Shown here: one piece after another, positions 6,688 to 33,224 of the stretch
Numbering within the stretch: the stretch's first letter is position 1
How the letters are laid out: each line of letters starts with the position of its first letter
NCBI GenBank assembly: GCA_017935525.1
Contig: JAGBHJ010000122.1
Location: 1-33,531, forward strand
Source: Clostridia bacterium
GTDB lineage: Bacteria; Bacillota; Clostridia; HGM11327
Length of the DNA: 33,531 nucleotides
Direction: 5' to 3'
The notes under the pieces: generated by a model
Seen by the model: only the letters and a program-made list of their open reading frames with translations
Told to the model about the DNA's origin: nothing
Databases searched by the model: none
Program-made: the position numbers and the translations under genes

Positions 6688-6716
6688 ATTATACCACAAA
6701 ATGGCGATATTGTCAA
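6688..6716 (-). promoter_or_regulatory. sigma-A type promoter of the pyrC-carAB-pyrKD operon
   Basis: The minus strand reads TTGACA (6716-6711), a 17-nt spacer, then TATAAT (6693-6688), with TG two nt upstream of the -10. It lies about 95 nt upstream of the pyrC ATG. Confidence 0.7.
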
Positions 6717-6800
6717 GTTTGCTTCATGATAAGTTCATATATCCCCGCAAAACACCCTCTGCAATTTTATACGGAAAAAACCGATGTTTTCTGCAGAACA

Positions 6801-6830
6801 AAGCGGCACCGTAACGTGATGCCGCTTTTT
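6801..6830 (-). terminator. hairpin terminating the paralog array
   Basis: Stem AAGCGGCA (6801-6808) pairs with TGCCGCTT (6820-6827) around an 11-nt loop. On the minus strand it is followed only by a weak TTTGTT tract. It sits 10 nt downstream of the stop of the last array gene. Confidence 0.5.
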
Positions 6831-6838
6831 GCCGTCAA

Positions 6839-8032
6839 TTATTTTCTGTCTATGCGGTACATTGCCATCTGTCCGGGGTAAAGACTGATGTATTCTCCGC
6901 TTTCGTACGGCTCCGTCACCTTGCCGTTAAGTATCAGTCCTGTCAGACTGCACTTTTCGTCGTCATAGGTTACGTGCACCGTGGTAGGATCCTTCATTTC
7001 TGCATTTACAAGGCAGAGGTACTCCGTACCGTCCTTGTCCTCAAAGGTACTGATGACCATTCTCTCAAAGGATCTTACATCCTTGATAAGCGGGTGGCTG
7101 TTTTCGCCAAACATGGGGAAGCACATTCTCTGGAAGCCCAGCATCCATGATTCCTTTCTCTTGAGCGTCACCAACAGCTCGCCAAACTGGTCGTTAAACC
7201 TCTTTTGGCAACGACCCAATCTGTCAAAGGTCAACGTTGTATTGCCGTATTCGTCAATAGGTGATCCATGGTAATTGGGAGCAATAATTCTGTCGTAAAA
7301 TCTGAACCAAGTGATACCTTTGATGCCCAGCGCCGCAGAGGTTGTGATCTGCCACATATACTGGTATTCGGTAAACTGCTTGTAGGAGCCGTGAGCAGAG
7401 CAAATGGGAGTTTCCCAGCACTCCATTCCTGCCGCCTCTGCCGCCTCAACAAATGCCTGTATAGTGCGCAGATATCCTGTTACACCGCCGTCACCGTCAG
7501 CCTGGCCGTAATTGTCAAAGCAGATCTCTTTGCAGCCCGTTTCGTCCTTCATCTTTATAAGGTAATTCTTTAACCACTCGGGACTGCTGAAATCCCACCA
7601 TGGAGTATCACCCGACATATTAAGGTAAGGATTCAGCTCGGGAGCGACCCTCTTATGGATGCCCATGGCTCTGATAGCATTGTCAAGAGACTTAGGCGTT
7701 CCCGGCTCGTCACCAACGTGAAAGCCGCGCAATGCGGGGTGACCCTTAAAGCGCTCGTAGTTCTTTCTTACCTGCTCTTCTCTTTTGGCGGCAGCCTCCG
7801 CAGTACAACCGTGGTATCCGCCTCCGCAGTCCAGAATCAGCTCGATGCCCAGCTCGTGGGCTCTGTCCAAGAACTCCAGTGTCTTTTTTGTTTCAGCCTC
7901 GCTGCCTCCGATTATACCCGCAAGCATGACCGTACAGCCGCTTTCAGCCCATTTATCTATTTCCTTTACCGTGTAATTCTCATCGGACATATTGAAGTAT
8001 ACCCAACCTCCGATAGGAAATTTTTTACCCAT
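6839..8032 (-). CDS. uncharacterised cytoplasmic glycoside-hydrolase-like (TIM-barrel-like) protein, array paralog P1
   Basis: The track ORF 6839..8053 begins at a TTG, so I trimmed it to ATG 8032 (MGKKFPIGGWVY), which has a GAAAGGAA SD upstream. It is homologous over its full length to P2-P6, carries KGHPALRGFHVGDEP, and has no signal peptide. The functional label is tentative. Confidence 0.85.
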   Translation of the reverse strand: MGKKFPIGGWVYFNMSDENYTVKEIDKWAESGCTVMLAGIIGGSEAETKKTLEFLDRAHELGIELILDCGGGYHGCTAEAAAKREEQVRKNYERFKGHPALRGFHVGDEPGTPKSLDNAIRAMGIHKRVAPELNPYLNMSGDTPWWDFSSPEWLKNYLIKMKDETGCKEICFDNYGQADGDGGVTGYLRTIQAFVEAAEAAGMECWETPICSAHGSYKQFTEYQYMWQITTSAALGIKGITWFRFYDRIIAPNYHGSPIDEYGNTTLTFDRLGRCQKRFNDQFGELLVTLKRKESWMLGFQRMCFPMFGENSHPLIKDVRSFERMVISTFEDKDGTEYLCLVNAEMKDPTTVHVTYDDEKCSLTGLILNGKVTEPYESGEYISLYPGQMAMYRIDRK

Positions 8033-8122
8033 ACTATTCCTTTCCCTCGGCAAAGCCGAGATCGTTCGTTAATAAATTTTCTCGCAGCCCCGGTCCGCCT
8101 CGTGCCACGCCTTGCCTGCGAC

Positions 8123-9322
8123 TTACCTTCTGTCGATGCGGTAGATCGCCATCTGACCGGGATACAACGAGATATTGCCTCCGCTTCTGTAGCGGCCTTC
8201 GATAGTACCGTTGAGTATCAGCTCCGTCAATCTGCACTTTTCCCTGTCATACGTAACCTGCACGGTTGTATGCTGCTCAAGCTCTGCATTTACAAGGCAA
8301 AGGTATTCCGTACCGTTTTCATCCTCAAAGGTACTGATGACCATTCTCTCAAAGGACTTTATGTCCTTGATAAGCGGGTGGCTGTTTTCGCCGAACATAG
8401 GATAGCTCATTCTCTGGAAGCCCAGCATCCAGGATTCCTTCCTCTTGAGTCTCATCAGCAGCTCGCCAAACTGGTCGTTAAACCTTCTGTGGCAACGCAT
8501 CATCCTTTCGTACGTCAACGTTGTATTGCCATACTCATCAATGGGTGAAGCATGATAGTTTGGTGCGATCTGTCTGTCGTAAAATCTGAACCAGGTGATA
8601 CCCTTGATGCCCAGCGCCGCAGAAGTTGTGATCTGCCACATTATGCCGTACTCGTCCATGCTTTTGTACGCAATATGCGCGGAGCAAAGAGGAGTTTCCC
8701 AGCATTCCAGCCCTGCCGCCTCTGCTGCCTCAACCATGTTTTTTATGATCCTGAAATAATCTGTCCTGCCGCCGTCGTTTATGGTCTGAGCGTAGTTGTC
8801 AAAGCAGACAACTCGGCAATTCGCCTCGTCCTTAAGTCTTTTCATCCATTGAGTAAAGGTAAGGCCGTTGAATTTGCCGTCCATCTTCCACGTGCTGCCA
8901 GCCAGGTTAATGTACGGATCCAGCTCGGGAGCTACTCTCCTTTGGAGACCCAGTGCCAGCACCGTGCCCTCCAAGCCGTCAGTAGTGCTGGGCTCATCAC
9001 CTGCATGGAATCCATACAGCGCAGGATGACCCTTGAATCTTTCGTAAACCTTACGGAAGGCCTCCTCCCGCTGAGCTACGTTGGACTCGTTGCAGCCGTA
9101 GTACGAGCCGGCGCCGCAGTCAAATATCAGCTTCATGCCATACTCTTGGGCCTTGTCCAAAAACCGTTCTGCCTTGCTCCAGTGCTCCTCAGTAGAGCCG
9201 ATACCGCCTGCCAGCATCACCGTACAGCCGCATTTAGCCCATCTTTCAACCTCTGCCTCTGTATAGCTCTTGTCGGACATATCAAAATACACCCAACCGC
9301 CTAACGGAAATTTTCTGCTCAT
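8123..9322 (-). CDS. uncharacterised glycoside-hydrolase-like protein, array paralog P2
   Basis: 399-aa ORF with ATG at 9322, 6 nt after the P3 stop. It carries KGHPALYGFHAGDEP. The C-terminal half is near-identical to P1. Confidence 0.85.
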   Translation of the reverse strand: MSRKFPLGGWVYFDMSDKSYTEAEVERWAKCGCTVMLAGGIGSTEEHWSKAERFLDKAQEYGMKLIFDCGAGSYYGCNESNVAQREEAFRKVYERFKGHPALYGFHAGDEPSTTDGLEGTVLALGLQRRVAPELDPYINLAGSTWKMDGKFNGLTFTQWMKRLKDEANCRVVCFDNYAQTINDGGRTDYFRIIKNMVEAAEAAGLECWETPLCSAHIAYKSMDEYGIMWQITTSAALGIKGITWFRFYDRQIAPNYHASPIDEYGNTTLTYERMMRCHRRFNDQFGELLMRLKRKESWMLGFQRMSYPMFGENSHPLIKDIKSFERMVISTFEDENGTEYLCLVNAELEQHTTVQVTYDREKCRLTELILNGTIEGRYRSGGNISLYPGQMAIYRIDRR

Positions 9323-9328
9323 GTTATC

Positions 9329-10531
9329 TCACTTTCTATCTATGCGGTACATACACATAAGACCGGGGTAAAGGATAGCGCCCTCTCCGTCCTCTATGTC
9401 GATAGGTCTTTCTATCTTACCGTTGAGCAAGACCTCCTTAAGCTCACACTTTGTACCATCATACTTGATGCGAACGTTATTGAGCTTTTCCATCTCCGCG
9501 TTAACGATGCAGAGGTATTCCTTGCCGTTTTCGTCCTCAAAAATGCTGACAAGAGTTTCCTCAAACGTCTTTATTTCCTTGATAAGCTCGTGGCTGTTTT
9601 CGCCAAACATGGGCAAGCTCATTCTCTGGAAACCCACCAACCATGACTCCTTCCTCTTGAGACCCATTATCAGCTCACCAAACTGCTGCTGGAATCTTCT
9701 CTGGCTGCGGAGCAAGCGATAGAACGTCAATGTCTTGTTACCAAATTCGTCAATGGGAGAATCGTGGTAGTTTGCAAGGAAGTTTCTGTCGTACAGTCTG
9801 AACCACGTAATGCCCTTAACACCCAGCGCCGCCGCCGTTGTGATCTGCCACAGCAGCTGGAACTCCGTAAGAGGTCTGTACGCCATATGCGCGGAGCAAA
9901 TAGGAGTTACCCACAGGTCAAGCCCTGCCTCCTCAGCCGCCTCCACAAATGCCTTTATGGAATGGAAATACGCCGTTACGCCGCCGCTGTTTATGGCTTG
10001 AGAATAAACGTCAAAGCACACCTCTCTGCAGCCTGTTTCTGCCTTAAGTCGCTTCATCCATGCCTTAATGCCGCCCTCGCCCCATATATCGCTGTCAGGT
10101 GTTCCGCCTGAGAAATTGATGTACGGGTGCAGCTCGGGAGCGACCTCCTTCTGCAGCTTTACACATCTGATGGTGTTTTCAAGAGCTTCTTTGGTTGACG
10201 GCTCGTCACCTGCGTGGAAGCCGTACAGCGCGGGATGTCCCTTAAATCTCTCGTAGACCTTGCGGAAATTCGCCTTCATGGTCTCATAATTTGCCTCCGT
10301 ACAGCCGTAATAACCGATACCGTCCATACAGATTATCAGCTTCATGCCGTACTCCTGAGCCTTGTCCAGGAATTTCTCCTGTATATCCCAGTCCTCCTCA
10401 CAAAATCTGGAAAGACCGGAGTGGATAACGTTAAATCCACACTCATGCCATGCTTCTACGTCAGCAGGAGTAAAATCCTCCTCTGTAAATTTCTTGTAGA
10501 CCCATGCGCCAAATGGATATTGTTTAGCCAT
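9329..10531 (-). CDS. uncharacterised glycoside-hydrolase-like protein, array paralog P3
   Basis: The track ORF starts at GTG 10540. I prefer ATG 10531 (MAKQYPFGAWVY) because an AGAGGTGA SD lies 6 nt upstream and the N terminus then aligns with P4 (MAKKFQFSAWVY). Confidence 0.85.
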   Translation of the reverse strand: MAKQYPFGAWVYKKFTEEDFTPADVEAWHECGFNVIHSGLSRFCEEDWDIQEKFLDKAQEYGMKLIICMDGIGYYGCTEANYETMKANFRKVYERFKGHPALYGFHAGDEPSTKEALENTIRCVKLQKEVAPELHPYINFSGGTPDSDIWGEGGIKAWMKRLKAETGCREVCFDVYSQAINSGGVTAYFHSIKAFVEAAEEAGLDLWVTPICSAHMAYRPLTEFQLLWQITTAAALGVKGITWFRLYDRNFLANYHDSPIDEFGNKTLTFYRLLRSQRRFQQQFGELIMGLKRKESWLVGFQRMSLPMFGENSHELIKEIKTFEETLVSIFEDENGKEYLCIVNAEMEKLNNVRIKYDGTKCELKEVLLNGKIERPIDIEDGEGAILYPGLMCMYRIDRK

Positions 10532-10543
10532 ATTCTTCACCTC

Positions 10544-11761
10544 TTACTTTCTGTCAATGCGGAACAGCATCATCTGTCCGGGGTAAAGTATCAAGCCCAT
10601 GCTCTCTGAATTCGGGTCAGACGAGCCGTTAAACGGCATCTTAACCTTACCGTTCAGCCTGTATTCTGTCACGGATGCCTTTGTGGAATCATAAACAAAG
10701 CGATAATCCGCAGGCTGCTTTCTTTCTGTGTTAACAAGGGCACAATACTCATTTCCCTCTGCATCCTCAAAAAAGCTCAGCATACCGTTCTCAAAGCTTC
10801 TGATCTCCTTGATAATGTCGTGACACTTGTTGCTGAATATGGGGAATGAGCCATACTGGAAGCCTATAAGATACGTGCTCTTTCTCTTAAGAGTGGGCAT
10901 GATCTCACCAAACTGCGCCATAAATCTTCTCTGGCAACGCATAAGCATCCAATACTGCTCCGTCTTGTAGCCGAATTCATCAATGGGGGAACCGTAGCAC
11001 TCGGGACCAACTGCTCTGTCGTACAGTCTGAACCAGGAAATACCCTTTGCACCTGCCGCAGCCGCCGTTGTGATCTCAAGCATGAATTCATATTCCGTAG
11101 GCACCCTGAAGCACCAATGTCCCGACGCAAGGGACGTCAGCCACCAATCAACACCGGCAGCCTCTGCAGCCTCCGCATGAGTCTTAAGGCTATGGAGGTA
11201 TCCTCTGAAGCCTCCGTCATTTATCATCTGGGAATACTCGTCCCACGTGTAGTAATCAACACCGGTTTCGTCCTTAAAGTATTTCAGCCATTCGGTAAAC
11301 GTTCTGCCTCCCAGCTTTTCCCTGGAGTCATTCATAGTGCTTCCGCGCAGATTGATCCACGGATTAAGCTCGGGAGCTACCTTCTTTTGTATCTTAAGTG
11401 CCTTTATCGTATTTTCAAGCGCATCCTTACTGTTGGGCTCATCGCCACAGTAGAAGCCGTACAAGCCGGGGTGACCCTTTACCTGCTCGTATATTCTGCG
11501 GAAGTTCTCCTCGTACTTTTCCTCACCCATTGAACCCAAAGCCCAATAAGATGTTGAGCCGACGTTGGCTATAAGCTGGATGCCGTTTTCAAAAGCCTTA
11601 TCAAGATACTTTTTCAGCTCAACCAAGTCTTCATCGCTGCCACTCATAGAAGCCGACATGGGCACCGTCAAGCCAAGCTCTGCCCAGCTGTCCACGTCAT
11701 CGGGTGTGATCTCCTTTATAGTAGGGTACACCCAAGCACTAAATTGAAATTTCTTTGCCAT
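10544..11761 (-). CDS. uncharacterised glycoside-hydrolase-like protein, array paralog P4
   Basis: 405-aa ORF with ATG at 11761. It carries KGHPGLYGFYCGDEP and is closest to P5. Confidence 0.85.
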   Translation of the reverse strand: MAKKFQFSAWVYPTIKEITPDDVDSWAELGLTVPMSASMSGSDEDLVELKKYLDKAFENGIQLIANVGSTSYWALGSMGEEKYEENFRRIYEQVKGHPGLYGFYCGDEPNSKDALENTIKALKIQKKVAPELNPWINLRGSTMNDSREKLGGRTFTEWLKYFKDETGVDYYTWDEYSQMINDGGFRGYLHSLKTHAEAAEAAGVDWWLTSLASGHWCFRVPTEYEFMLEITTAAAAGAKGISWFRLYDRAVGPECYGSPIDEFGYKTEQYWMLMRCQRRFMAQFGEIMPTLKRKSTYLIGFQYGSFPIFSNKCHDIIKEIRSFENGMLSFFEDAEGNEYCALVNTERKQPADYRFVYDSTKASVTEYRLNGKVKMPFNGSSDPNSESMGLILYPGQMMLFRIDRK

Positions 11762-11772
11762 ATCTTAACCTA

Positions 11773-13008
11773 TTACTTTCTGTCAATACTAAACAGTATC
11801 ATCTGTCCGGGGTAAAGTATCAAGCCCATATTTGCAGCTTCGGGGTCGGATGAGCCCGTAAATGGCATCTTGACCTTACCGTTGAGCCTGTACTCCGTAA
11901 AGGAGGCCTTTGACCCGTCATAAATAATTCTGAAATCTGCCTGCTGCTTCTTTTCAAGATTTACCAGCGCACAGAATTCCTTGCCGTCCGCACCCTCAAA
12001 GAAGCTTACCAATCCGTTCTCAAAGCATCTGATCTCCTTGATCACGTCGTGGGACTTGTTACTGAATATGGGGAACGAGCCGTACTGGAAGCCAATCAGG
12101 CAGGTCTTCTTTCTCTTAAGACCCAGCATGATCTCACCAAACTGCTGCTGGAATCTTCTCTGACAACGCATCAAAGCCCAGTAATGCTCCGTCTTGCAGC
12201 CATACTCATCAATGGGTGAGCCGTGGTAGTTGGGGGCAATCTTTCTGTCATACAGTCTGAACCAGCAAACGCCCTTTACACCGCAAGCCGCCGCAGTTGT
12301 GATCTGCCACATATATTCATACTCCGTAGGAATACGGAACGCCTCATGGGCGCTGGAAAGCAACGTTGCCCAGCACTCAACGCCTGCCTCATCCGCCGCA
12401 TCAGCGTTTGCCTTAAGTGTTTCAAGATATATTCTTACACCGCCATCGTTGATGGTCTGTGCGTATTCATCAAACGTATAATAATCAACGCCTGTTTCTT
12501 CCTTAACGTACTTGAGCCACTGGGGAAACGTTCTGCCGCCCAAAAGGTCGGGAGTGTACTCCTTTGCCGCACTTCCCTGAAGGTTTATCCACGGATTAAG
12601 CTCGGGAGCGATCCTCTTTTGTATCTTTAACACCTTTACTGTGTTCTCAAGGCTTTCCTTTGTGCCGGGCTCATCACCGCAGAAGAAGCCGTACAGCGCA
12701 GGGTGCCCCTTGATCGCATTATATATTCTTATAAAGTTCTTCTCATACGCTTCTTCCGTCACACCGGCATTCAGAGAATAGTATGCCAGACAGGGCACGT
12801 TTGCAATAAGCTTTATTCCAAGCTCCTGAGCTCTGTCGAGGTATTTTTTGAATTCCTCAAGCTCTGCTTCGCTGCCGCCAATGCTTCCGGCAAGTGTTAC
12901 AGTCAAGCCCAGCTCCGCCCACGTATCGACCTCATTGGGTGTAAACTCCTTCTGGTCCGGATATACCCATGCTCCAAAAGGATATTTTGTTGTGGTATCC
13001 TTTGTCAT
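11773..13008 (-). CDS. uncharacterised glycoside-hydrolase-like protein, array paralog P5
   Basis: 411-aa ORF with ATG at 13008 and an AGAGGTGG SD. It carries KGHPALYGFFCGDEP. Confidence 0.85.
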   Translation of the reverse strand: MTKDTTTKYPFGAWVYPDQKEFTPNEVDTWAELGLTVTLAGSIGGSEAELEEFKKYLDRAQELGIKLIANVPCLAYYSLNAGVTEEAYEKNFIRIYNAIKGHPALYGFFCGDEPGTKESLENTVKVLKIQKRIAPELNPWINLQGSAAKEYTPDLLGGRTFPQWLKYVKEETGVDYYTFDEYAQTINDGGVRIYLETLKANADAADEAGVECWATLLSSAHEAFRIPTEYEYMWQITTAAACGVKGVCWFRLYDRKIAPNYHGSPIDEYGCKTEHYWALMRCQRRFQQQFGEIMLGLKRKKTCLIGFQYGSFPIFSNKSHDVIKEIRCFENGLVSFFEGADGKEFCALVNLEKKQQADFRIIYDGSKASFTEYRLNGKVKMPFTGSSDPEAANMGLILYPGQMILFSIDRK

Positions 13009-13019
13009 TTTGCCACCTC

Positions 13020-14201
13020 TTACTTCCTGTCAATTCTGAACAAAAGCATCTGACCCGGGTATGCATCCAACGGCTCACCGTAGTCTCCAAGCTTATGCTG
13101 GATAGAACCGTTGCGCTCAAGCATTACAACGTCAGCCTTTGAGCTGTCATAGGTAAGATCAAAATGTGTCGGCTGAGTCATTTCGGCGTTTACAAGTGCA
13201 AAATATTCCTTACCCTCAGCATCCTCAAAGAAGCTTATAACGCCTCTTTCAAACAGATCGAGGGACTTAACAACGTCGTGGCAATGCTCGTTGAACATTG
13301 TATAGCTCATTCTGGGGAAGCCTGTAAGATATGATTTCTTCCAATTAAGATCCAGCATTATCTGACCAAACTGATCCTGGAATCTTCTCTGGCAGCGCAT
13401 CAGCATATTATACTGCTCCGTCTTGTAGCCAAACTCATCAATAGGTGAGCCATGATACTCGGGAGCGATGGCCTTGTCGTACAGTCTGAACCACACGATA
13501 CCCTTACAGCCCAATGCAGCCGCATGAGTGATAGCCCACATAAACTGGTATTCCGTAGGAATTCTGTATGACCAGTGTGCGCTGGAAAGCAGAGTTGCCC
13601 AGCAATTAACGCCTGCAGTCGCAGCAGCCTCGTTCTGCGCCTTCATGCATCTGTAGAAGTTTGTTACGCCACCGTCGTTGATGGTCTGATCGTAAATATC
13701 AAAGCAGAATTCGTCACAGCCGTTTCTCGTCATAAATTACGTAATAAAATCGGGGTACTTTTTGCCGGGGAATATGTGGCGATGCTCAAATGTGCCGCCC
13801 ATAAGGTTGATGTAGGGATTCAGGTTGGGAGCGACCTCCTTCTGTGCCTTCATCTCCTTAATAACGTATTCTACTGCGGCGGGATTGCCCGGCTCGTCAC
13901 CAATAAAGAAACCGTAAATTGCAGGGTGCTTCTGCAGCTTTACCTCATAAAGCTCCTTAAAACGCGCCTTGTACTCGTCTTCGTTATTGGCGTTGCCAAT
14001 ACCCGTTACCCAAACGATCAGCTGAATATCTCTTTCCTGCGCTCTGTCAAGAAAAGGAAGAAGCTTCTCCGCCTCATCGTAACCTGCGATGGACGACATC
14101 GTTACCGTCAAGCCCATGTCAGCCCAAACGTCTACCTCATCGGGAGTAAACTCGTTTACAGAATTGTACACCCATGCTCCAAAAGGGAATTTTTTAGTCA
14201 T
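13020..14201 (-). pseudogene. array paralog P6, interrupted by one in-frame TAA (or a naturally split gene)
   Basis: ORFs 13737..14201 (154 aa, N-terminal part with FFIGDEP) and 13020..13733 (237 aa, C-terminal part) are in the same frame. They are separated by TAA (13739-13737), one Phe codon, then an ATG (13733-13731). Together they align collinearly with P5. Confidence 0.65.
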
Positions 14202-14284
14202 AAATTATCCATCCTTTCAATATAAAAAACCTGCGTTAGCCCTGCAGGGATGTTGTGCTGTTTCATTATCTTTGCATAGTAATA

Positions 14285-14313
14285 AGTTTATCACACCGGC
14301 TGTCATTTGTCAA
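14285..14313 (-). promoter_or_regulatory. promoter of the paralog array
   Basis: The minus strand reads TTGACA (14313-14308), a 17-nt spacer, then TAAACT (14290-14285), preceded by TGa (extended -10). It lies about 85 nt upstream of the P6 ATG. Confidence 0.6.
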
Positions 14314-14368: not shown

Positions 14369-14404
14369 TAAAAAATCGACAGAGGACTGATCTCCTCCGT
14401 CGAT
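14369..14404 (-). terminator. rho-independent terminator of the acyltransferase gene
   Basis: A 12-bp stem with one mismatch (14375-14386 pairing with 14393-14404) and a 6-nt loop. It is followed on the minus strand by TTTTTATT. Confidence 0.75.
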
Positions 14405-17540: not shown

Positions 17541-18218
17541 TCAAAGAATGATCTTGAATAATTCTTCCGCAAAAAGCTCGTGCATTTCCCGCGTAGGGTG
17601 GTTGACCCTGTTGACAAGAAGCTGCGTTACGTCCTCCGTCTTGGCAAGCTCCTTCCACTTGCCGTAGCAATCGCACACGGTGACCCCTGCCCTTTGTGCA
17701 GAGCTGATACCTGCGTCAACAAAGGCGTCCATTTTTCCGCCGTTCTGCATTTGGGCGGTCTTTGCCGCAAACTCACGAAGCTCGGGTGCCACGTCGGGGG
17801 CTACGTAGGTGTTCATCATGTTTGGCGTCATAAATATGACCTGATCACACCTTTCCTTGCAACGGGCAAATATCTCGTCAAGGGCGTTGACGTATTCGTT
17901 TATGTCGCCATGGACGTCATTCAGCCCAAAGCAAATTATAATGCAATCGGGGTTGTGGCAGAGGGCTTGGCTTTCCAGCCTTTTTACACCCATTGCGGCA
18001 GTGGTGCCGCCAATACCCGCATTGATCACGTTTACATTTATCTGGTGACTTACCGCATTGATCTTTTTGCGGAGTCTGTTCCAATACACCGTATCAAAAT
18101 CAGCCTCGTCGCCATCCAGCCAACCAAAGGTTACGCTGTCGCCAAATGCAACGATGGTTATTGGGCCTTTTTCTATCAGATCATAAACGTTTCCAAAAAG
18201 CTTTTCTTTAATACTCAT
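17541..18218 (-). CDS. SGNH/GDSL-family hydrolase (esterase)
   Basis: 225-aa ORF with block I VAFGDSVTFGW, block III FGLNDV and a C-terminal NHPT block. It has no signal peptide. The ATG lies 11 nt after the GH172 stop. Confidence 0.75.
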   Translation of the reverse strand: MSIKEKLFGNVYDLIEKGPITIVAFGDSVTFGWLDGDEADFDTVYWNRLRKKINAVSHQINVNVINAGIGGTTAAMGVKRLESQALCHNPDCIIICFGLNDVHGDINEYVNALDEIFARCKERCDQVIFMTPNMMNTYVAPDVAPELREFAAKTAQMQNGGKMDAFVDAGISSAQRAGVTVCDCYGKWKELAKTEDVTQLLVNRVNHPTREMHELFAEELFKIIL

Positions 18219-18229
18219 CTTCTACTCCA

Positions 18230-19348
18230 TCAGAACATATATGTCGCTATCATTCTGTCCGTCCTTGCAGGTCTGGGCATACGTTGCTCCACAGGGATCA
18301 TGGGCTCAAAGCTGTGGGGAGAATGTGGCTCCTCCTGATACCAGTACGCCGTGCAAGCCCAGTCGTCCTTTCTGTCGTTTGCCGTGCCGTGCTCCATGCT
18401 TACTCGTATCTTCTTTTCAAAAGGAATGGCGTCCGCCACGTGGAATCTGTACACACTCACCTTGCCATGACAGTTGTGGGCGCGCAAAAAGTCCTTGTCC
18501 TCGCACCATGACTCGCCGCAGTACATATGCTGGTAGCTTTGCATACCCCACGCATGGCACAGATAATCCTCGCTGCCCGTGCCGTGAAGCTCCGGCGGCC
18601 AATTTCCACCCCAATCGGGAGTGCCCTCGGGTCGGTCGATAAATATCATATCGTCGCCCTCGCCCCACCATTCGCCTGTTATATTATCAATATAAAGGTT
18701 TATACCAAGGTAATTGCCCCTGCCCTCTGCATAGAGAATGGGGAAATTGTATTTGTCCGTCTGATTACTGCCCTGCATCATCTTGTCGTACAGCTCATCG
18801 CCCGTATCGTCGGGGTTGACTGTGGGGTTGCGCCTTCTCCACGTTGCGTGAAAACGGAACGGGTCAACGTCCTCTTCGGGCATTTCCCGCCAATCCACGT
18901 AATAATATACGCTCATTCCGAGGCTCGACTGGTTTACAAGCTCTATCCTTGCATGGGACGAAAACGGCATCGGCACCCAGCTGTTGAGGGAAACACCCTC
19001 GCCCTGCCTGCGCTCATCATTCACCGTTGTGGAAAAGCATACGCTGGTATGGGTGTATGACCTTGCATGGCCTACGCCAAAAAAATCACCGACAGGCGCC
19101 TCTACGGATGGAGTCTCCTCGTTGTCCCAATACATTCTGATAAGAATGGATCTTAAATAGAACGGGTCAGGGGATGCTATTGCCATCCAGATATGCCTTA
19201 CTTCGCCTGCGGCATCCACGTCTATCAAAGGATATGTCTCTCCTGCACCTACCCCTTGCGAATCAGAGTTGCCGCCGTTTCTGTCGTAACTGCTCTCTCT
19301 GCGGGACTTAAAGTGCAGAGGGGCCTTCAAATCATCTAAATTCCTCAT
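18230..19348 (-). CDS. DUF2961 / glycoside hydrolase family 172 protein
   Basis: 372-aa ORF with the family-typical N-terminal block SSYDRNGGNSD...GEVRHIWMAI. A GAGGAGAA SD lies upstream of ATG 19348. Confidence 0.75.
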   Translation of the reverse strand: MRNLDDLKAPLHFKSRRESSYDRNGGNSDSQGVGAGETYPLIDVDAAGEVRHIWMAIASPDPFYLRSILIRMYWDNEETPSVEAPVGDFFGVGHARSYTHTSVCFSTTVNDERRQGEGVSLNSWVPMPFSSHARIELVNQSSLGMSVYYYVDWREMPEEDVDPFRFHATWRRRNPTVNPDDTGDELYDKMMQGSNQTDKYNFPILYAEGRGNYLGINLYIDNITGEWWGEGDDMIFIDRPEGTPDWGGNWPPELHGTGSEDYLCHAWGMQSYQHMYCGESWCEDKDFLRAHNCHGKVSVYRFHVADAIPFEKKIRVSMEHGTANDRKDDWACTAYWYQEEPHSPHSFEPMIPVEQRMPRPARTDRMIATYMF

Positions 19349-19383: not shown

Positions 19384-20736
19384 TCAATCTGCCTTATTTA
19401 TAAGATCGATGTCGCACGCCTTTACGTTGACCTTGCCCGTGTACGTTCTTGGCTCATCATCCATACTGATGCTGTTGACAATGGAAACGTTAAGGCTTCG
19501 CTTGTCCTCGCACCGTATCAGCTCCGACTCTCCGCCAAAAAACGTAGTGCCGTTGATCAGCACGTTACACACGGGGTACTCAAGCTCCGGGTAATCCAAC
19601 TGCTTCAACCATATCTTACTGTTGCCCACGGTGGAGTTGATCAGCTTGACACAGTCAAACGCCGTCTTTGATGATATCAATGCCGTGATCTCGTTTTCGC
19701 AGGTGATATTCTCAAATACCAGATTTTTCTGTACGGGCGGTTGAGAGCCGGGGTAATAGCTTCTGGAAAAGGCGTCGTCATCAAAATGTCTGGAAAGTGC
19801 GGCAGATCTCTTTTTCTGCAGGTGGATGTCACGGAAGGTTATATTCTCGCAACCGCAATTGTATATCACATCATCCTGCACCATTACCCACGGAATGCCG
19901 TCCAGCACCTCCACCCCCTCGGTGTGGGTGGGCTGTGTGTTGGAGATGTACTCCTTGCCGTCAACGGGAGTATCGCTTCTGTAAAGTCTGCCGTTGGATA
20001 CTACCGTGTCGGACCTGCGTATGGGCATACCCTGTCGCCAGTCACACCACGAGCCTGCCAGTATTCTGGCAAAAAAGCCCGTTGTATCCTTGTCGTCCAG
20101 ATCCCAGCAATCCTCTATTATGCCGTCCTTTATCCAGCCCAGCTGTGGGTTGGACGTAGTATAGTCGTGAGCATTTAATGCGATGGGGTCATCAAAGGTG
20201 CGGAATATTCCGTGACGAACCACAAATTTTTCGCCTCTGCCAAAGTGGATGGCGTCCTTCCTGCCCTCAATATGTACCCTCTCTATTACCGCATCCTCAA
20301 AGGTGCATATCTGTATGCAGAAGCTGCCCGGCAAAAGATCCATACACTCAAGGTCGTATATTCTTAACCTCTTGATGTAAAAGAACGAAACGTGGGATAT
20401 CAAGCCTACGATGGGGGAATTTCCCCTTGCCTCAATGCCGTTGCAGATAAGGTTAAGACCCCGTATTGTGATGTCGTGGTCATACTCCCTTGTAAAAGCG
20501 CCCTTATTAACAAACACGTATGCCGACACAACACCTGCGTCGGTACATTTTACTCTTTTTATATACACGCCCGGGCTGAATATTACCTCTGTATTCGATG
20601 ACAAAAATATCGTTCTGTCCAGCTCATACACACCCGGCTCGGTGACTCTTACCGTGCCGCCCTTATCGCAGAGCGCCTGCAAAGCCATGCTGTTTTCTTT
20701 GCCCGTGCTGTGGGGCGAAAGCTTGTATTCTGACAT
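19384..20736 (-). CDS. right-handed parallel beta-helix (pectin-lyase-fold, GH28-like) protein
   Basis: I trimmed the track ORF 19384..20970 to ATG 20736 (MSEYKL), which has a perfect AAGGAGG SD 5 nt upstream. The protein shows periodic beta-helix-like repeats and GH28-reminiscent blocks (GRKDAIHFG, FDDPIALNAH). Confidence 0.65.
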   Translation of the reverse strand: MSEYKLSPHSTGKENSMALQALCDKGGTVRVTEPGVYELDRTIFLSSNTEVIFSPGVYIKRVKCTDAGVVSAYVFVNKGAFTREYDHDITIRGLNLICNGIEARGNSPIVGLISHVSFFYIKRLRIYDLECMDLLPGSFCIQICTFEDAVIERVHIEGRKDAIHFGRGEKFVVRHGIFRTFDDPIALNAHDYTTSNPQLGWIKDGIIEDCWDLDDKDTTGFFARILAGSWCDWRQGMPIRRSDTVVSNGRLYRSDTPVDGKEYISNTQPTHTEGVEVLDGIPWVMVQDDVIYNCGCENITFRDIHLQKKRSAALSRHFDDDAFSRSYYPGSQPPVQKNLVFENITCENEITALISSKTAFDCVKLINSTVGNSKIWLKQLDYPELEYPVCNVLINGTTFFGGESELIRCEDKRSLNVSIVNSISMDDEPRTYTGKVNVKACDIDLINKAD

Positions 20737-20766
20737 AATTACCTCCTTAAGAGTGATATCTACTAT

Positions 20767-20795
20767 ATTATAACAACAAAGCAGGATTTTTTCAA
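20767..20795 (-). promoter_or_regulatory. promoter of the beta-helix/GH172/SGNH operon
   Basis: The minus strand reads TTGAAA (20795-20790), a 17-nt spacer, then TATAAT (20772-20767), preceded by TGt. It lies 30 nt upstream of ATG 20736. Confidence 0.65.
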
Positions 20796-20983
20796 GAGAA
20801 AAATGTTCGTGTTTTGTTCCGTCAAGTGGGGCAATACAAATTTGTCGGTATTCTCCGCAAAAATATGTTAAGAATGCAGGAACGGGCACACAACCGACCA
20901 AAAGCGTTTTCCGCAGCCACCCGCCACACACACCCAAAGCAAAAAAGCCTTGGAGCCTGTCGCGCCCCATAAAGGGGTATTAT

Positions 20984-21159: not shown

Positions 21160-23382
21160 TTACTTTGTTGCCCAGACTTTTGTGTAGGTCGTGTAGAAAT
21201 TGTACACGTCATTATAGCCTGCATCCTCAAGGGACTTTTTGTAAGCCTCCCAGTCGGAATCCGACTTTCTGCCCCTCAGATATTCCCTTGTAAAATCCTT
21301 TGCCAATGCGGAAAGCTGTGCGATCTTTGCTTCCATAGCTTCAGCCTCTGCCTTCTGCATTACCTCAAATGCGGAGGGTGCAAACAGCTCGTATATCACC
21401 ATGCCGTTCTTTTTGGTGTTTTCTACCAGCACATCCATTATGGGATACTGCTGTGTCTGCGACTCCGTAAAATTGTATATTGTATACTGCATGGGGAATG
21501 CGGAAACGTCAGCGAAAAAGTCTATACCGCCCGTTCTGCCGCCGTTCAATATCCACAGTCTTGTCTTTTCCGTTGCGGGATAGGGGAAAATATGGTCGTC
21601 CGTAACGTATGGACTGTGGTTTTCGTCCATGTAGTAGGACCAATTCTTTACTCTCACCCTTACCTGGGAGGTCGTACCGTCGTAATTCTCAACGGTTTCC
21701 ATGGTCCACTGCTCGCCTGCTATCCATTCGGGCTTTGTAATGTCCAGCTCCTCATAAGTCAGCTCGGGAGTCCAGTACTTGTCAAAGCCGTAAGGACTTC
21801 TCCACACACCGTCGCCTGACTTAAAGCCGTTGCACACCTGAAACAGCCATGTATAAAGGGGTGAAAGCCTTTCGAAGAATGGCTTACCTGCTCTCCACAA
21901 GGGAGCATCCAGGTCCTCCTCAGCCATATAAAAACGGTCTTCTCCGGCTGCAAATCTGATATATTCCTTACCGTCGGGACCCTCTGTCCAAACAAAATTA
22001 CCTGATTCCTCCCAGGATTCTGCAAAGGGTATGCCCTCTCTGCCGAAGATAGTCTGCAAATAACCCTTCAGATTACAGAATTTGCTCATATAATTCATTA
22101 TCCTTAAAGGAATATCGTAGCCCATTTCAGTTCTGCTTGTTACGGCACGGTTTGAAATTGCGATATAACAATAGTCAAAGCCGGACCCTGCGGAAAGCGC
22201 CGCCTTGTAGCCCTCTGCCGCAATGGGCTGGTCTATCCAATAACCTTCATTACCGACGCCAAGGTGGTATCTGTGCCATGCATCGCCGTACATCATCAGC
22301 TCGCCTATTGCCAACGACCATCTTTGGTCTGCAAGGTCACCCTTAAGTATCTCTCTGATATCATTGGCGCAATCCCAGCCTGCAATAGTGTCTTCATACT
22401 TAGAATCTGTGATAACGTATTCATTCTCTGCCAATCTCTTGACCGCCTGCAAAACCTTAAGGTATGCGTCGTCGTAGTAAGAGAACAAGGGCTTGCCGTT
22501 CATTTCCTTCCAGTCAAATGCCGTATCAAAGTCCAATCCGTAGGCATTTGCCACGGGTGTAATGATGGAATCCAGCGTCACGGTCTCCATATTGTGGATA
22601 AATCCGTAATTGTCAGGGTTTTTCTGCTTATACGCAGCCAGCGCCTCCTCAACCTGCTCCCATGTTTTGGGAACCTCCAGTCCAAGCTCATCAAGTGCCA
22701 TGTGGTTGAATATCAACGCGGACTTTTCCATCATGTACTCTGCTCTGGGCAACGCATACAGGCAACCGTCAGGCGCCAAGAGCGCTTCCTTCATCTCGTA
22801 GAAATACTCCGTATCACCGATCTTTTCGCCCCATACCCAGTTTACGTAATCCTCCAGGATGCCGCCTGCGGAAATAAAGGGGTTAAAGTCGATAAGGTAG
22901 TCCGGGCCAAGCTTTTTGAACACAGCGTCCTTACCTGTATTAAGAGCGTAGAGTGCAGGCAAAAAGTCGGGCATTGTGTTCGGGTCTGCGAATACGCTCA
23001 GCAAAGAGGAATAATACATATCTCTTTGTTCCTGTGAATACAGCGCGTCATACTGATTTATTCTGAAAACTTCGCTGTTTACAGGTGCAATCTTTGCGTC
23101 GATCTTTAAGCCGCATTCTGCCAATGTGGCTATTGCAGCACCGTCCCAAGAGGCCAGATAATTAACCGTATCGTAAATAACTATGCCCTCTAACTGGTTA
23201 AACTGGCCGTTGCTCCAATCTGCCATATCAGAGTTATCCGGCTTGACAGGTGTAGGTGTGGTTGTGGGCACTGCCGTGGGGGTTCCCTCAAGACTTGGGG
23301 AGCCACTTGGATCAGCCGCACAGCCTGTCAGCACAGCAATACAAAGCAATGATGCCAGCGCGATTCTGATAAAACTTCTCAT
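21160..23382 (-). CDS. 740-aa lipoprotein, extracellular solute-binding-protein-like (putative glycan binding)
   Basis: Signal peptide with the lipobox LTGC (Cys21), followed by a Pro/Thr-rich linker (TPTAVPTTTPTPVKP). The body resembles large family-1 sugar-binding lipoproteins. The functional label is tentative. Confidence 0.7.
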   Translation of the reverse strand: MRSFIRIALASLLCIAVLTGCAADPSGSPSLEGTPTAVPTTTPTPVKPDNSDMADWSNGQFNQLEGIVIYDTVNYLASWDGAAIATLAECGLKIDAKIAPVNSEVFRINQYDALYSQEQRDMYYSSLLSVFADPNTMPDFLPALYALNTGKDAVFKKLGPDYLIDFNPFISAGGILEDYVNWVWGEKIGDTEYFYEMKEALLAPDGCLYALPRAEYMMEKSALIFNHMALDELGLEVPKTWEQVEEALAAYKQKNPDNYGFIHNMETVTLDSIITPVANAYGLDFDTAFDWKEMNGKPLFSYYDDAYLKVLQAVKRLAENEYVITDSKYEDTIAGWDCANDIREILKGDLADQRWSLAIGELMMYGDAWHRYHLGVGNEGYWIDQPIAAEGYKAALSAGSGFDYCYIAISNRAVTSRTEMGYDIPLRIMNYMSKFCNLKGYLQTIFGREGIPFAESWEESGNFVWTEGPDGKEYIRFAAGEDRFYMAEEDLDAPLWRAGKPFFERLSPLYTWLFQVCNGFKSGDGVWRSPYGFDKYWTPELTYEELDITKPEWIAGEQWTMETVENYDGTTSQVRVRVKNWSYYMDENHSPYVTDDHIFPYPATEKTRLWILNGGRTGGIDFFADVSAFPMQYTIYNFTESQTQQYPIMDVLVENTKKNGMVIYELFAPSAFEVMQKAEAEAMEAKIAQLSALAKDFTREYLRGRKSDSDWEAYKKSLEDAGYNDVYNFYTTYTKVWATK

Positions 23383-24602: not shown

Positions 24603-27600
24603 TCAATGCTTGTGAACAAACTTACGTCTCTTGGGGTCGTACACAAATGTGAGTACAAGACCAAAGAATGAAAGTATTGCAAGTATCAACCATGTGTAGA
24701 TGGGTGCTTCACCAAGCTCGGGGTCATATACGTTTACAAACTTGACCTCAACCTCGCCCAAAGCCTTGCCGTTGATCTTTGTTGTTGCTACAAGCTCATC
24801 CTCTGTCACGTCGCTTTCTGCTACCGTGATTACAACTGTGTAAACAGTCTCATCGTAGATAACATGTACGTCCTTGCCCTTAAGCTCATTCATCGTGAAC
24901 TCGTAAACACCTACCTCAAGGCCTTCCAGCGTAAACTTGAAGTTGCCCTCTGCTGTGTTTGTTACCTTCTGGATAACTTTGCCATCCTTATCCTTAAGAA
25001 CAAACTCAAAGTCGCCTGCATCAAGGCTGTTGCCCTTGAACTCCTTGATACCCTGAATCTCAACTGTGATCGTAGGCTTGGGGATCGTGGGATCGTTGTG
25101 CTTATCGTATGTGTTTTCAAATTCGATGGAGTTTGCAGAGCTGTTCTCTACGCCGTAGCTTGCCGTTGCGGAAAGCGTACCGTCAAGGTTGTCTGTAACC
25201 GTGATAATTACTGTGTACTCTCTGCCGTCATACTCAACGCCGGGCATATTGCCTTCGGTCTCTGTTACGGTGTAGTAATAAGTACCAACCTCGTCAAACG
25301 TGAGAGTTGCAAACTCAAACTTGCCCTTGCCGTCAGGTCCGGGTGCTGCGTTTGTTACCTCGTCCGTATAACCCTCGTTGTTTGCAAGAATGAACTCGAA
25401 CATATTTGCTTCAAGTATCTTGCCCACCAACGTCTTGTGACCAAACAAAGTGATCTCGGCAGGTGTTGTTGCCTTGTACTTGTTGGTAAATTCGATCTCG
25501 GTTGCTCTGTCGTTGCCTACGTAATACATAACGTCTGCGGAAAGGTTGCCCTCGCCATCATCGGTTACGCTGATCTCTACTGTGTAGATCGTTTCGTCAT
25601 AGGTCATGCCGCCAATAGTGCCGCTTACCTCGGAGATAGTCACTACAATGTCTTCAGCCTTTGTAAAGCCCAGCTTTTCGATCAAGAACTCGATGCTGCT
25701 GTCAGCGTCAATGTTCTGGAGAACGTATACGGAAGGCTCCTCACCCTCAACCTCTATCTTGAATGTGAACACGTCACTGTCAAGGAAGTGTCTGCCGAGG
25801 ATGTTCTTTGTAGCGTATATCGGCACCTCAAGGTACTTGGGTGTATATACGTTATTGAACGTAATTGCGTAAACAGGGTTATTGGGATCAAACTGCTCGG
25901 GAATGTCGATCAATGTTCTTGTTCCGTCAGCTGTCTCCTTGTAGCAGATAACCTCTGCCACACCGATCTCGCCTGTATCCACTCCGCCGATGAACTTTTC
26001 ACCAATGGTTACCTCAAAGAGGTATCTTGTCTCGTCGTAAGCAACGCCGCCAAGCTTATCCGTGGGGATCAGCTCTCTTACGATGTAGTAATACTTCTGG
26101 CCCAGGGATGCTGCCATTTCGATCTCTACGTCAAAATAACCGTCTGCATCGTTCTTGCCGGAGTCTATCATGCTGCCCTCTGTCCATGTATCGCCGTTGA
26201 CAGTTGCCTCAAATATAGCAAACTCAAACTCATTTGCCTTAAGGTCTCTGCCTGTAAGTGTCTTGATACCGCGGAGAGCCACGTCGATAGTGCTGGGGTC
26301 ATATACGTTTGTAAATTCCAGCTCTGTGCCGTTTATTGCAACGGGTGCAGGAAATGCATCGCCGTTGGCATCAACGGTCTTTTTGATCTCCATACTGTAA
26401 CCCAGAGTACCGTCCAGGTTATCAATAACCGTTATGGAGATGGTGTACTGACTTTCGTCATACTGCAGATATCTGTTTACACCCTCAAAGGAGCTTACGT
26501 ATTCCTTGACTGTGTAAACCAAAGTTCTGCCGGCGTCTTCTGCCTTAAGCTGGATGTCAAAGGATGCTTCGCCGTTATCGTCCGTTACCGCATATGTGCC
26601 AACAAGGGCGCCGCTTGCATCGTAAAGACCAAACTTAAAGCCTTCGGGTGTAACGTTATGGTTTACGCCCTGAGGATTGGAGATCAGCTTCTTGATGGAA
26701 ACAAGACCGTCAATGTCAAGATCCTCTGCATCGTACTCGTTAACAAATGCCAGCTCTGTCTTTTCTTCGTTGCCTACTGTATAGTCAACAGAAGAAGAAA
26801 GTGTGCCATCGCCGTTATCCGTTATTGTTACCACAACCGTATAAACAGTTTCGTCGTAAGTAACGCCGCCAATGTTGCCCTTAACCTCGTTTACTGTGTA
26901 AGTATATACACCTGCGTGTGTATACTGTCTGGGTGCAAACTCAAATCCTGCGATATTGTTTGCATTAGCCGCGCCGTTATCTGCTGTGTCAAGCACGGAG
27001 CCACTCAGATTCTTCAGCTGGAATGTAAACTCTCCATCCTCAAGCTCTCTGCCGATAAGCTCCTTTGTACCCTCGATCACAACGTCAATGGGCTCGGGAG
27101 TGTATGTGTTTACAAAGTCAATAACGTAAACAGGATTGTTGGGATCAAATGCACCGGGCACGTTGATCTCTGTTTGAACGGTGTTGCCGCCCTCAACTGT
27201 TTCCTTTGTTACCTTGATGGTGTTGATGCCGTAAACGCCGTCAACGTGATTCAAGGTGTAAGAAATCAGATATCTTGACGTATCGTAAGTGATATAATCA
27301 AGCTTGGTCGCAGGAATGATCTCCTCTATGATCACATAGTAGATCTTGCCCTCGTCAGGCTCAGTAGTAAGGTCAAGACGGAATTCTCCATCCTTATCGT
27401 TAAATGCTGTATCAACCGCATCGCCAACCTTGATCCATTGAGAGCCGCGAACCTCAGCCTTCCAGATACCAAACTCAAACTCGCCTGCTTCAACAGCCTT
27501 GCCGATAAGAGTCTTGTGACCCGCTACCGTGAAGTAAACGTTGGAAGGATCGTAAACGTTTTCAAACGCAACAGAAACGTTGGTGTTGTCACTGAGCACA

Positions 27601-33068: not shown

Positions 33069-33224
33069 AATACATCTCCTTATTCTTATCTTATAAAAAA
33101 CATCAAAAGACATTTTCGCAGAAAATATAAAGTAATCATGAGTGAGTGCCGATTTTCAAACCGTTACAAAACGTAACATCATGTTTTTGAGAAAATCTGC
33201 TCGTCCCCCTCATAATCCATGGTT

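Follow-up and report, generated by a model that had tools for sequence, protein, structure and literature searches.

A Paralog-Only Tandem Array from an Unnamed Family of Glycosidase-Fold Proteins in a Clostridia Bacterium

Six tandem paralogs in one predicted operon

The DNA analyzed here is contig JAGBHJ010000122.1 of a Clostridia bacterium (assembly GCA_017935525.1), a stretch of 33,531 nucleotides (nt) that we refer to as the window. Between positions 6839 and 14201, its minus strand carries six consecutive homologous genes arranged head to tail, as seen from the open reading frame (ORF) listing and the translations. The copies were named, from the first to the last transcribed, c6, c5, c4, c3, c2, and c1 (Table 1). 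A preliminary description of this DNA had reported six full-length paralogs of 397 to 411 amino acids (aa) that share a series of motif blocks. The six homologous minus-strand genes are there, and all of the listed blocks were found in our MAFFT alignment, but c6 is interrupted by a stop codon and would have 393 aa if read through. Pairwise identity among the six copies is 45 to 67%, with about 100 alignment columns invariant; in the alignment, the other copies are 46 to 67% identical to c1. The blocks in the six-copy alignment are FP.GAWVY, KGHP.L.GF..GDEP, APEL.P(Y/W)IN, FD.Y.Q, ITT(S/A)AA.G.KG..WFR.YD(R/K), SPIDE(Y/F)G, and YPG(Q/L)M...IDR(K/R). No hydrophobic segment was found in any copy (maximum of the 19-residue Kyte-Doolittle mean, ≤1.25), in agreement with the earlier statement that the proteins have no signal peptide or transmembrane segment, and all six are predicted to be cytoplasmic.

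The spacers within the array are 11, 11, 12, and 6 nt long, and that between c2 and c1 measures 90 nt; the Shine-Dalgarno sequences sit over the ...IDRK codons of the gene before. This is the spacing that had been described, with four short spacers and a longer fifth one. The promoter-like site before the array and the hairpin after it were both located as well, and the array is predicted to be one operon with a single transcript. Its neighbors are an acyltransferase-3 gene on one side and the pyrC-carA-carB-pyrK operon on the other, and it includes no other gene.

The stop codon in c6 is an in-frame TAA at positions 13737 to 13739 (...PDFIT-stop-FMTRNG...), which breaks the gene up into a 154-aa ORF (13737-14201) and a 237-aa one (13020-13733). 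An ATG is found 4 nt downstream of the stop (TAA TTT ATG), and the NCBI annotation gives the 237-aa remainder as coding sequence J6L92_03850. Over 8.1 kb, the window is 98.1% identical to L084, a contig of a different sample that has the same layout, acyltransferase-c6-c5-c4-c3-c2. The c6 of L084 is intact, with 393 aa, and has GAC (Asp) in place of TAA, a difference of two substitutions within one codon. The c6 ortholog in SIG351 (L001:3755-5062; 77% identical) is intact, too. Because c6 has TAA where L084 has GAC and an intact gene, five of the six copies in the window are counted as intact and one as interrupted; c6 is either broken in this strain or mis-assembled. The ratios of synonymous to non-synonymous differences between the window and L084 are 15:3 for c5, 8:3 for c4, and 14:6 for c6, and this synonymous excess between two strains indicates that the copies are under purifying selection.

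Table 1. Coordinates of the array genes, of the predicted transcription signals, and of other features in the window
Feature	Positions	Strand	Remarks
c6 (subtype A)	13020..14201	-	First gene of the array; split by an in-frame TAA
c5 (subtype B), 411 aa	11773..13008	-	Target of structure prediction; D112-E113-P114 at the end of β4
c4 (subtype B, duplicate of the c5 lineage), 405 aa	10544..11761	-	67% identical to c5
c3 (subtype C), 400 aa from ATG at 10531	9329..10531	-	L084 gene call likewise 400 aa
c2 (subtype C), 399 aa	8123..9322	-	Compared with c1: 67% identical overall, 77 to 80% in the C-terminal half
c1 (subtype C), 397 aa from ATG at 8032	6839..8032	-	90-nt spacer before the start
c2-c1 spacer, 90 nt	8033..8122	-	Contains a 6-bp hairpin (CTCGGC-TTT-GCCGAG) immediately before the Shine-Dalgarno sequence of c1
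Sigma-70-type promoter-like site, TTGACA-17-TAAACT with TG extension	14285..14313	-	10/12 matches; upstream of the array
Terminator of the upstream acyltransferase-3 gene	14404..14375	-	Separates the array from that gene transcriptionally
Intrinsic-terminator-like hairpin, 11-bp stem, then UUUGUU	6796..6828 (hairpin 6828..6800)	-	3' of the array
pyrC promoter, perfect consensus	6716..6688	-	12/12 match
SGNH gene	17541..18218		
GH172 gene	18230..19348		
528-aa ORF	19384..20970	-	Upstream of GH172
740-aa ORF	21160..23382	-	Upstream of GH172
2,836-aa ORF	24603..33113	-	

An unnamed family with remote homology to clan GH-A

Pfam and NCBIfam searches with all copies gave no model at threshold, which bears out the preliminary description where it could assign no family. 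Among 58 family members, the weak matches were to DUF4434 (PF14488) in 16 (best E = 1e-3), to AP_endonuc_2, a xylose-isomerase-like barrel, in 11, and to glycoside hydrolase (GH) family GH99 in 5. Almost all of the weakly matched families (DUF4434, GH99, GH42, and apiosidase) are of the triosephosphate isomerase (TIM)-barrel glycosidase type. The DUF4434 match covers residues 51 to 250 and scores below the gathering cutoff of 30 bits, with 19.2 bits for the best window copy and 24 to 24.7 bits for the best members (range, 19 to 25). GH99 (13 bits) and apiosidase (12.5 bits) were below threshold as well, as was GH42, with about 20 bits in distant members. There was no match to the Cellulase, GH39, or GH35 models of Pfam, and none at E ≤ 1 to PF00728 (Glyco_hydro_20) or PF13320 (DUF4091) in the 58 members.

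A word-indexed search returned 110 clusters, none of them with a precomputed Pfam domain; wherever a cluster carries a database name, it is "hypothetical protein." A second indexed search, using distant members as queries, again found unnamed proteins only. The sole relative with a precomputed Pfam domain is a peripheral fragment (P0240) labeled PF14488/DUF4434, at 24.7 bits against the 30-bit cutoff. DUF4434 is the nearest named family; it is itself uncharacterized, occurs in a single paper of the searched literature, as a gene label, and is presumably a member of the glycosidase TIM-barrel clan. No characterization of the family of c1 to c6 was found in the literature searched. When 1.84 billion representatives were searched exhaustively with a family profile, 3,596 proteins matched at E ≤ 1e-3, 1,646 at E ≤ 1e-10, and 278 at E ≤ 1e-30. 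The family thus amounts to about 3,600 clusters at 50% identity, without a name, a Pfam model, or a characterized member. No match was found to the PADLOC defense models or, by tblastn, in 72,556 plasmids.

The AlphaFold2 model of c5, built from a 58-sequence alignment, has a predicted local distance difference test score (pLDDT) of 94.3 and a predicted template modeling score (pTM) of 0.93. It is a (β/α)8 barrel of about 295 aa (β1, residues 11-14; β2, 37-42; β3, 66-70; β4, 105-112; β5, 140-143; β6, 176-180; β7, 211-217; β8, 246-250) with a C-terminal β-sandwich of about 115 aa (298-410), so that the barrel and β-rich tail anticipated in the preliminary description were recovered. In a Foldseek search of the PDB with this model, the top matches were all glycosidases, with E values of about 1e-12, 9 to 14% identity, and template modeling (TM) scores of 0.5 to 0.6. 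They include PslG (GH39; TM, 0.53), Bs164 (GH164; TMq, 0.60), GH35 β-galactosidases, and a glucosidase; barrels of the GH39, GH164, GH35, and GH1 types were matched at a probability of 1.00. Clan GH-A enzymes, such as PslG (5bx9 and 9g17), the Bs164 β-mannosidase (6t5o), the GH35 enzymes, and GH5 enzymes (4lx4 and 4ee9), likewise consist of a barrel and a β-sandwich. At the sequence level, phmmer against PDB sequences gave noise only. A profile of the family detected GH5 endoglucanases at E = 3e-4 over α2-β3-α3-β4, and in this alignment the GDEP of the family is superposed on the NEP of GH5. The family is remotely homologous to the clan GH-A glycosidases and probably belongs to the TIM-barrel glycosidase superfamily, in which it has neither a name nor a characterized member.

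Arrays and subtypes in related genomes

We scanned the GTDB species representatives for the family. Because the best 80 stretches were kept, copy numbers per genome are lower bounds. The 77 loci are mostly from metagenome-assembled genomes (MAGs) of uncultured Clostridia, Eubacteriales, and "Ruminococcus sp." Their sources are rumen, omasum, rectum, and horse feces, and isolate labels suggest mouse and human gut. Members with 26 to 34% identity were found in Lentisphaerae, Phycisphaerae, Poribacteria, Latescibacterota, and Brocadiia.

Tandem copies were counted by scanning all loci with a hidden Markov model of the family. Most loci have a single copy, and the range is 1 to 7. There are at least seven copies in tandem at L011, six at L005, five at L012 (one of them cut off by the locus end and set apart by a gap), and four each at L002, L010, and L073, the last in a Phycisphaerae MAG; seven further loci have three each. 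Two ORFs of about 425 aa that follow the L073 array were checked and are not family members. Genomes carry at least 5 to 14 copies, with 14 over five contigs in SIG351. Since arrays of 3 to 7 copies and genomes with 5 to 14 copies recur among the relatives, amplification is a trait of the family, and the six-fold amplification in the window is not the unusual case for which it had been taken. The family is among the most amplified ones in several uncultured Clostridia of the rumen and hindgut, often in arrays that consist of paralogs only.

A neighbor-joining tree and identity tables distinguish three old subtypes, namely, A (c6), B (c5 and c4), and C (c1, c2, and c3), and the window array therefore reads A-B-B-C-C-C. 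The order A-B-C is kept in four arrays, those of the window, L078, L001, and L002. L001, from a sister species, has one-to-one orthologs of c6, c5, and c1 at 77 to 80% identity (c5, L001:5056-6306, 79%; c1, L001:6347-7558, 80%), and L002, the second array of that species, reads A-B-C-C. L078 is a second array in the MAG lineage of the window itself (P0004 = J6L92_03400). These sequence relationships indicate an ancestral A-B-C triad, block-duplicated elsewhere in the genome and expanded internally in the window.

Catalytic residues and loop divergence

Conservation was examined in 58 near members and in 62 to 130 distant members; residues are numbered as in c5. E113 and P114 are invariant in both sets, and Q235 is invariant in the distant set and present in about 93% of the near set. 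D112, N142, Y182, H221, W14, and W234 are conserved at 90% or more in both; position 112 is Asp in 96 to 98%, with Glu in a few sequences. D180 is conserved in at least 90% of the distant members and is Gly or Ser in a third of the near members. The conserved Tyr after β6 (D-x-Y) is, as we take it, the counterpart of the GH5 H-x-Y.

E113 comes directly after β4, which is the acid/base position of clan GH-A, and it is aligned to the acid/base Glu of GH5 in the β3-β4 region. The clan has Asn before the acid/base and a Glu at the end of β7, whereas the family has Asp at the first position and a conserved His at the second. The nucleophile Glu at the β7 end is absent, and no conserved Asp or Glu was found at positions 214 to 222 in 58 near and 62 distant members; this segment reads x-T-L-L-S-S-A-H-x, with H221 conserved at 92 to 97%. 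Four carboxylates, E229, D/E231, D254, and D267, are conserved only within subfamilies. Compared with the clan, the family is also set apart by its predicted cytoplasmic location, its length of about 400 aa, and its tandem amplification. The wording "glycosidase-like" of the preliminary description, in which the absence of the canonical β7 nucleophile had gone unnoticed, is justified by the fold, but with that residue missing, it cannot be read simply as a standard retaining hydrolase of clan GH-A.

The family motif is [H/Y/F]-x-G-D-E-P. GH20 enzymes, which use a substrate-assisted mechanism, have the motif H-x-G-G-D-E (PMC10570127), and GH123/DUF4091 enzymes have a DE motif and are substrate-assisted, too (PMC11087588). 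Both are TIM-barrel enzymes with consecutive Asp and Glu residues at the C-terminal end of a central strand and without an enzymic nucleophile. In a motif comparison, the consecutive D112 and E113 after β4, together with the lack of a β7 carboxylate, match this GH20/GH123-type pair pattern. A conserved Tyr and several Trp residues are a further likeness (PMC10570127; PMC11087588). There is no detectable sequence similarity to GH20, GH18, GH84, or GH123, and the comparison is meant as a hypothesis on the way of working and not as a claim of membership.

Three loops of the catalytic face vary strongly among the six copies. These loops, β2α2, β3α3, and β5α5, have a mean pairwise identity of 21 to 25% and hold the indels, while loops β4α4 and β8α8 are at 67 to 70% and the remainder of the protein is at 46 to 65%. 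The N-terminal half (β1 to β6) is the most divergent part in every pair of copies. Hypervariable β2α2, β3α3, and β5α5 loops around conserved catalytic motifs fit a common catalytic core with different subsites. Tandem clusters of carbohydrate-active enzyme (CAZyme) paralogs in gut bacteria arise by lineage-specific duplication and have divergent substrate-binding loops. The present operon differs from such clusters in general in that it contains paralogs only and in that the A-B-C order is kept across arrays.

A putative battery of intracellular glycosidases and its alternatives

We consider the array most likely to encode a battery of glycosidase-fold enzymes of a new family (probability, about 0.6 to 0.7) and give the explanation as a whole a probability of about 0.6. 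Proteins of the c1 to c6 type would be intracellular exo-acting or oligosaccharide-acting glycosidases for imported oligosaccharides. The copies would have a common catalytic machinery and differ in their subsite loops, which would make them a substrate-diversified battery. Such a battery was one of the possibilities raised in the preliminary description, and it fits the variable loops, the conserved motifs, the purifying selection, and the preserved subtype order.

The gene neighborhoods of a distant subfamily, with 24 to 29% identity, point in the same direction. At L089, the gene order is solute-binding protein (SBP)-829 aa-496 aa-GH95-GH112 (lacto-N-biose-type phosphorylase)-member-FucU; at L085, it is AraC-giant 1,633-aa protein-46-aa ORF-member-GH95; at L086, it is AraC-GH78-giant 1,835-aa protein-47-aa ORF-member-GH95; and at L088, it is SBP-giant protein-44-aa ORF-member, followed by a GH20 gene at a downstream distance of about 3.4 kb. 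These operons with GH95, GH112, GH78, and SBP genes place the family in cytoplasmic oligosaccharide catabolism. The adjacency to GH112 is compatible with a role in releasing N-acetylhexosamine (HexNAc) or lacto-N-biose/galacto-N-biose (LNB/GNB), although it is no proof of such a role.

Asp in place of Asn before the acid/base and the loss of the nucleophile are marks of neighboring-group enzymes, and for this reason the likeliest chemistry would be one in which β-linked 2-acetamido sugars of the GlcNAc or GalNAc type are cleaved with assistance from the substrate. The acetamido group would be oriented by D112, with E113 as the acid/base. This specific mechanism is proposed tentatively, and we put its chances below even. 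Going further, the family may be the first branch from the clan GH-A fold that has given up the β7 nucleophile, in favor of an Asp-Glu substrate-assisted mechanism or another non-canonical one (His-containing or phosphate-dependent), and its A-B-C triads may be three cooperating specificities; this is a speculative and, on balance, unlikely extension. If it were true, the triads would serve an unknown class of oligosaccharides used by uncultured rumen and gut Clostridia. Should the proteins be glycosidases with an altered catalytic constellation, they would form a new CAZy family and may show a new route from classical retaining catalysis to neighboring-group participation. As glycosidases, they would expose an unrecognized capacity for oligosaccharide processing in fiber-degrading gut communities. 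We regard the family as a promising target for the discovery of enzymes.

Several points weigh against the proposed battery or its chemistry. The support for the function comes from the predicted fold and the motifs, and that for substrate assistance from a residue pattern. The pocket positions of D112, H221, E229, and D231 are estimates from the secondary structure of the model. None of the structures in the Foldseek top 50 belongs to GH20, GH18, GH84, or GH123. D180 and several Arg residues differ between near and distant members, and the subfamilies may not share one chemistry. Finally, the operon in the window contains no transporter, regulator, or other CAZyme gene, and the loci of the near family lie among housekeeping genes, which leaves the substrate unconstrained.

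Among the alternatives, the one that survives best, though we find it rather unlikely, is that of classical retaining catalysis: the proteins would be clan GH-A glycosidases for neutral oligosaccharides of plant origin, and their nucleophile would have moved, either to E229 or D/E231, where α7 starts, or, within the near subfamily, to D254 or D267, which follow β8. In favor of this are the fold and the alignment of the acid/base motif with GH5, and distant members are found beside GH95, GH78, and GH2-type genes of the kind typically involved in degrading plant glycans. As for the candidate nucleophiles, all six copies and 51 of the 58 near members have E229, position 231 is mostly acidic, and D254 and D267 each occur in 57 of the 58. 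None of the four is located at the β7 end, however, and none is conserved family-wide: of 62 distant members, only 36 have E229 and practically none has D254. Moreover, the residue before the acid/base is Asp and not the O2-binding Asn of GH-A.

An invariant acid without a nucleophile could also be the sign of glycoside phosphorylases of the cytoplasm or of some other single-acid inverting enzymes, in which E113 would protonate the leaving group and phosphate or water would take the place of the nucleophile. The strictly cytoplasmic prediction would suit such enzymes, conserved His and Arg residues (H102, H221, R225, and R251 or R233) could bind the anion, and the gene of one distant member comes immediately after that of a GH112 phosphorylase. 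A precedent exists in GH112, whose barrel resembles that of GH42. However, the Arg positions differ between subfamilies, the arrays have no phosphomutase or kinase gene linked to them, and the sequences resemble those of no phosphorylase family. We regard this alternative as improbable.

More improbable still is that glycosides are not cleaved at all and that the proteins are TIM-barrel isomerases, epimerases, or other enzymes or non-catalytic sugar-binding proteins of the same fold. The missing nucleophile would be in keeping with this, an ordered E…D…H pattern could bind metal, and AP_endonuc_2 was weakly matched in 11 of the 58 members. But these matches extend over only about 50 residues, with scores far short of the threshold, the top structural neighbors are all glycosidases, for which a C-terminal β-sandwich is typical, the GDEP motif aligns with the NEP of GH5, and distant members are encoded within glycosidase operons. 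Least probable of all is a hetero-oligomeric assembly with the paralogs as subunits, which would account for the A-B-C order in the window, L078, L001, and L002 and for a translationally coupled operon with spacers of 6 to 12 nt and Shine-Dalgarno sequences inside the preceding genes, and for which the homotrimers of GH164 and GH42 might be cited, but which is at odds with the range of 1 to 7 copies per locus and the single copy at most loci, with the loss of subtype A in this strain while the others are intact, and with the full set of catalytic motifs in every copy.

Transcription signals and neighboring genes

The hairpin 3' of the array has a ΔG of -20.9 kcal/mol (z = -3.18). Weak promoter-like matches inside the array, such as that at 8230..8202 in the 3' end of c2, are about as frequent as expected from shuffled sequences. 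A candidate attenuator in the 5' leader (14225-14250, minus strand), a CCTGC...GCAGG hairpin followed by six U residues, was rejected, its stability being that of shuffled sequences (z = 0.23). No Rfam family was found over the whole window, including the 5' leader. The c2-c1 spacer may have a role in regulation or processing within the array.

The preliminary description had drawn attention to glycan-related neighbors of the array. The GH172 and SGNH genes are real, but they are outside the operon and more than 3 kb from the array, beyond a HAD phosphatase gene, which is on the other strand, and a uridine kinase gene; three independently oriented or terminated genes separate them from it. GH172 was seen near the family in 2 of about 89 loci, the window and L073 (L073:15170-16354, DUF2961). 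The linkage is unproven and may be a coincidence or a weak functional link. The labels "solute-binding lipoprotein" and "β-helix protein" in the same description were not confirmed by Pfam. The comparison of copy number and synteny that it had called for showed recurrent arrays in relatives; the flanks of the window array (pyrC/carAB, acyltransferase, HAD, udk, SGNH, and GH172) are kept only in the near-identical strain.

Clustering of the neighbors over the 77 loci gave no consistent partner. The recurrent ones were SLH-domain surface proteins (13 loci), a lipoprotein-like protein of 552 aa (8 loci; signal anchor and Cys recognized by eye, without a Pfam match), and a GH27-like α-galactosidase (7 loci). 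None of them is consistently co-oriented with the family genes or adjacent to them, and they were not used to assign function.

Some other genes were noticed in the course of the analysis. The giant protein and the conserved 44- to 47-aa ORF that precede the distant member at L085, L086, and L088 form an unannotated three-gene module with it (L085:3289-8346, L086:4325-9989, and L088:4834-9887). The giant protein, of 1,633 to 1,835 aa, has a faint match to the MAM domain and, in one case, a weak match to GH42. At L078, the A-B-C array is followed on the same strand by a gene for a 746-aa BspA-type leucine-rich-repeat protein (L078:12471-14711), and a GH36/raffinose-synthase-like gene is found on the opposite strand. 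In the window, the 528- and 740-aa ORFs have no significant Pfam match; the product of the latter matches SBP_bac_8 weakly (E = 1.5e-3). The 2,836-aa ORF encodes an N-terminal VWA domain, 11 isopeptide domains of the FctA/Spy0128 type, and a SpaA-like domain, and its product looks like a giant surface protein of the pilus or adhesin type.

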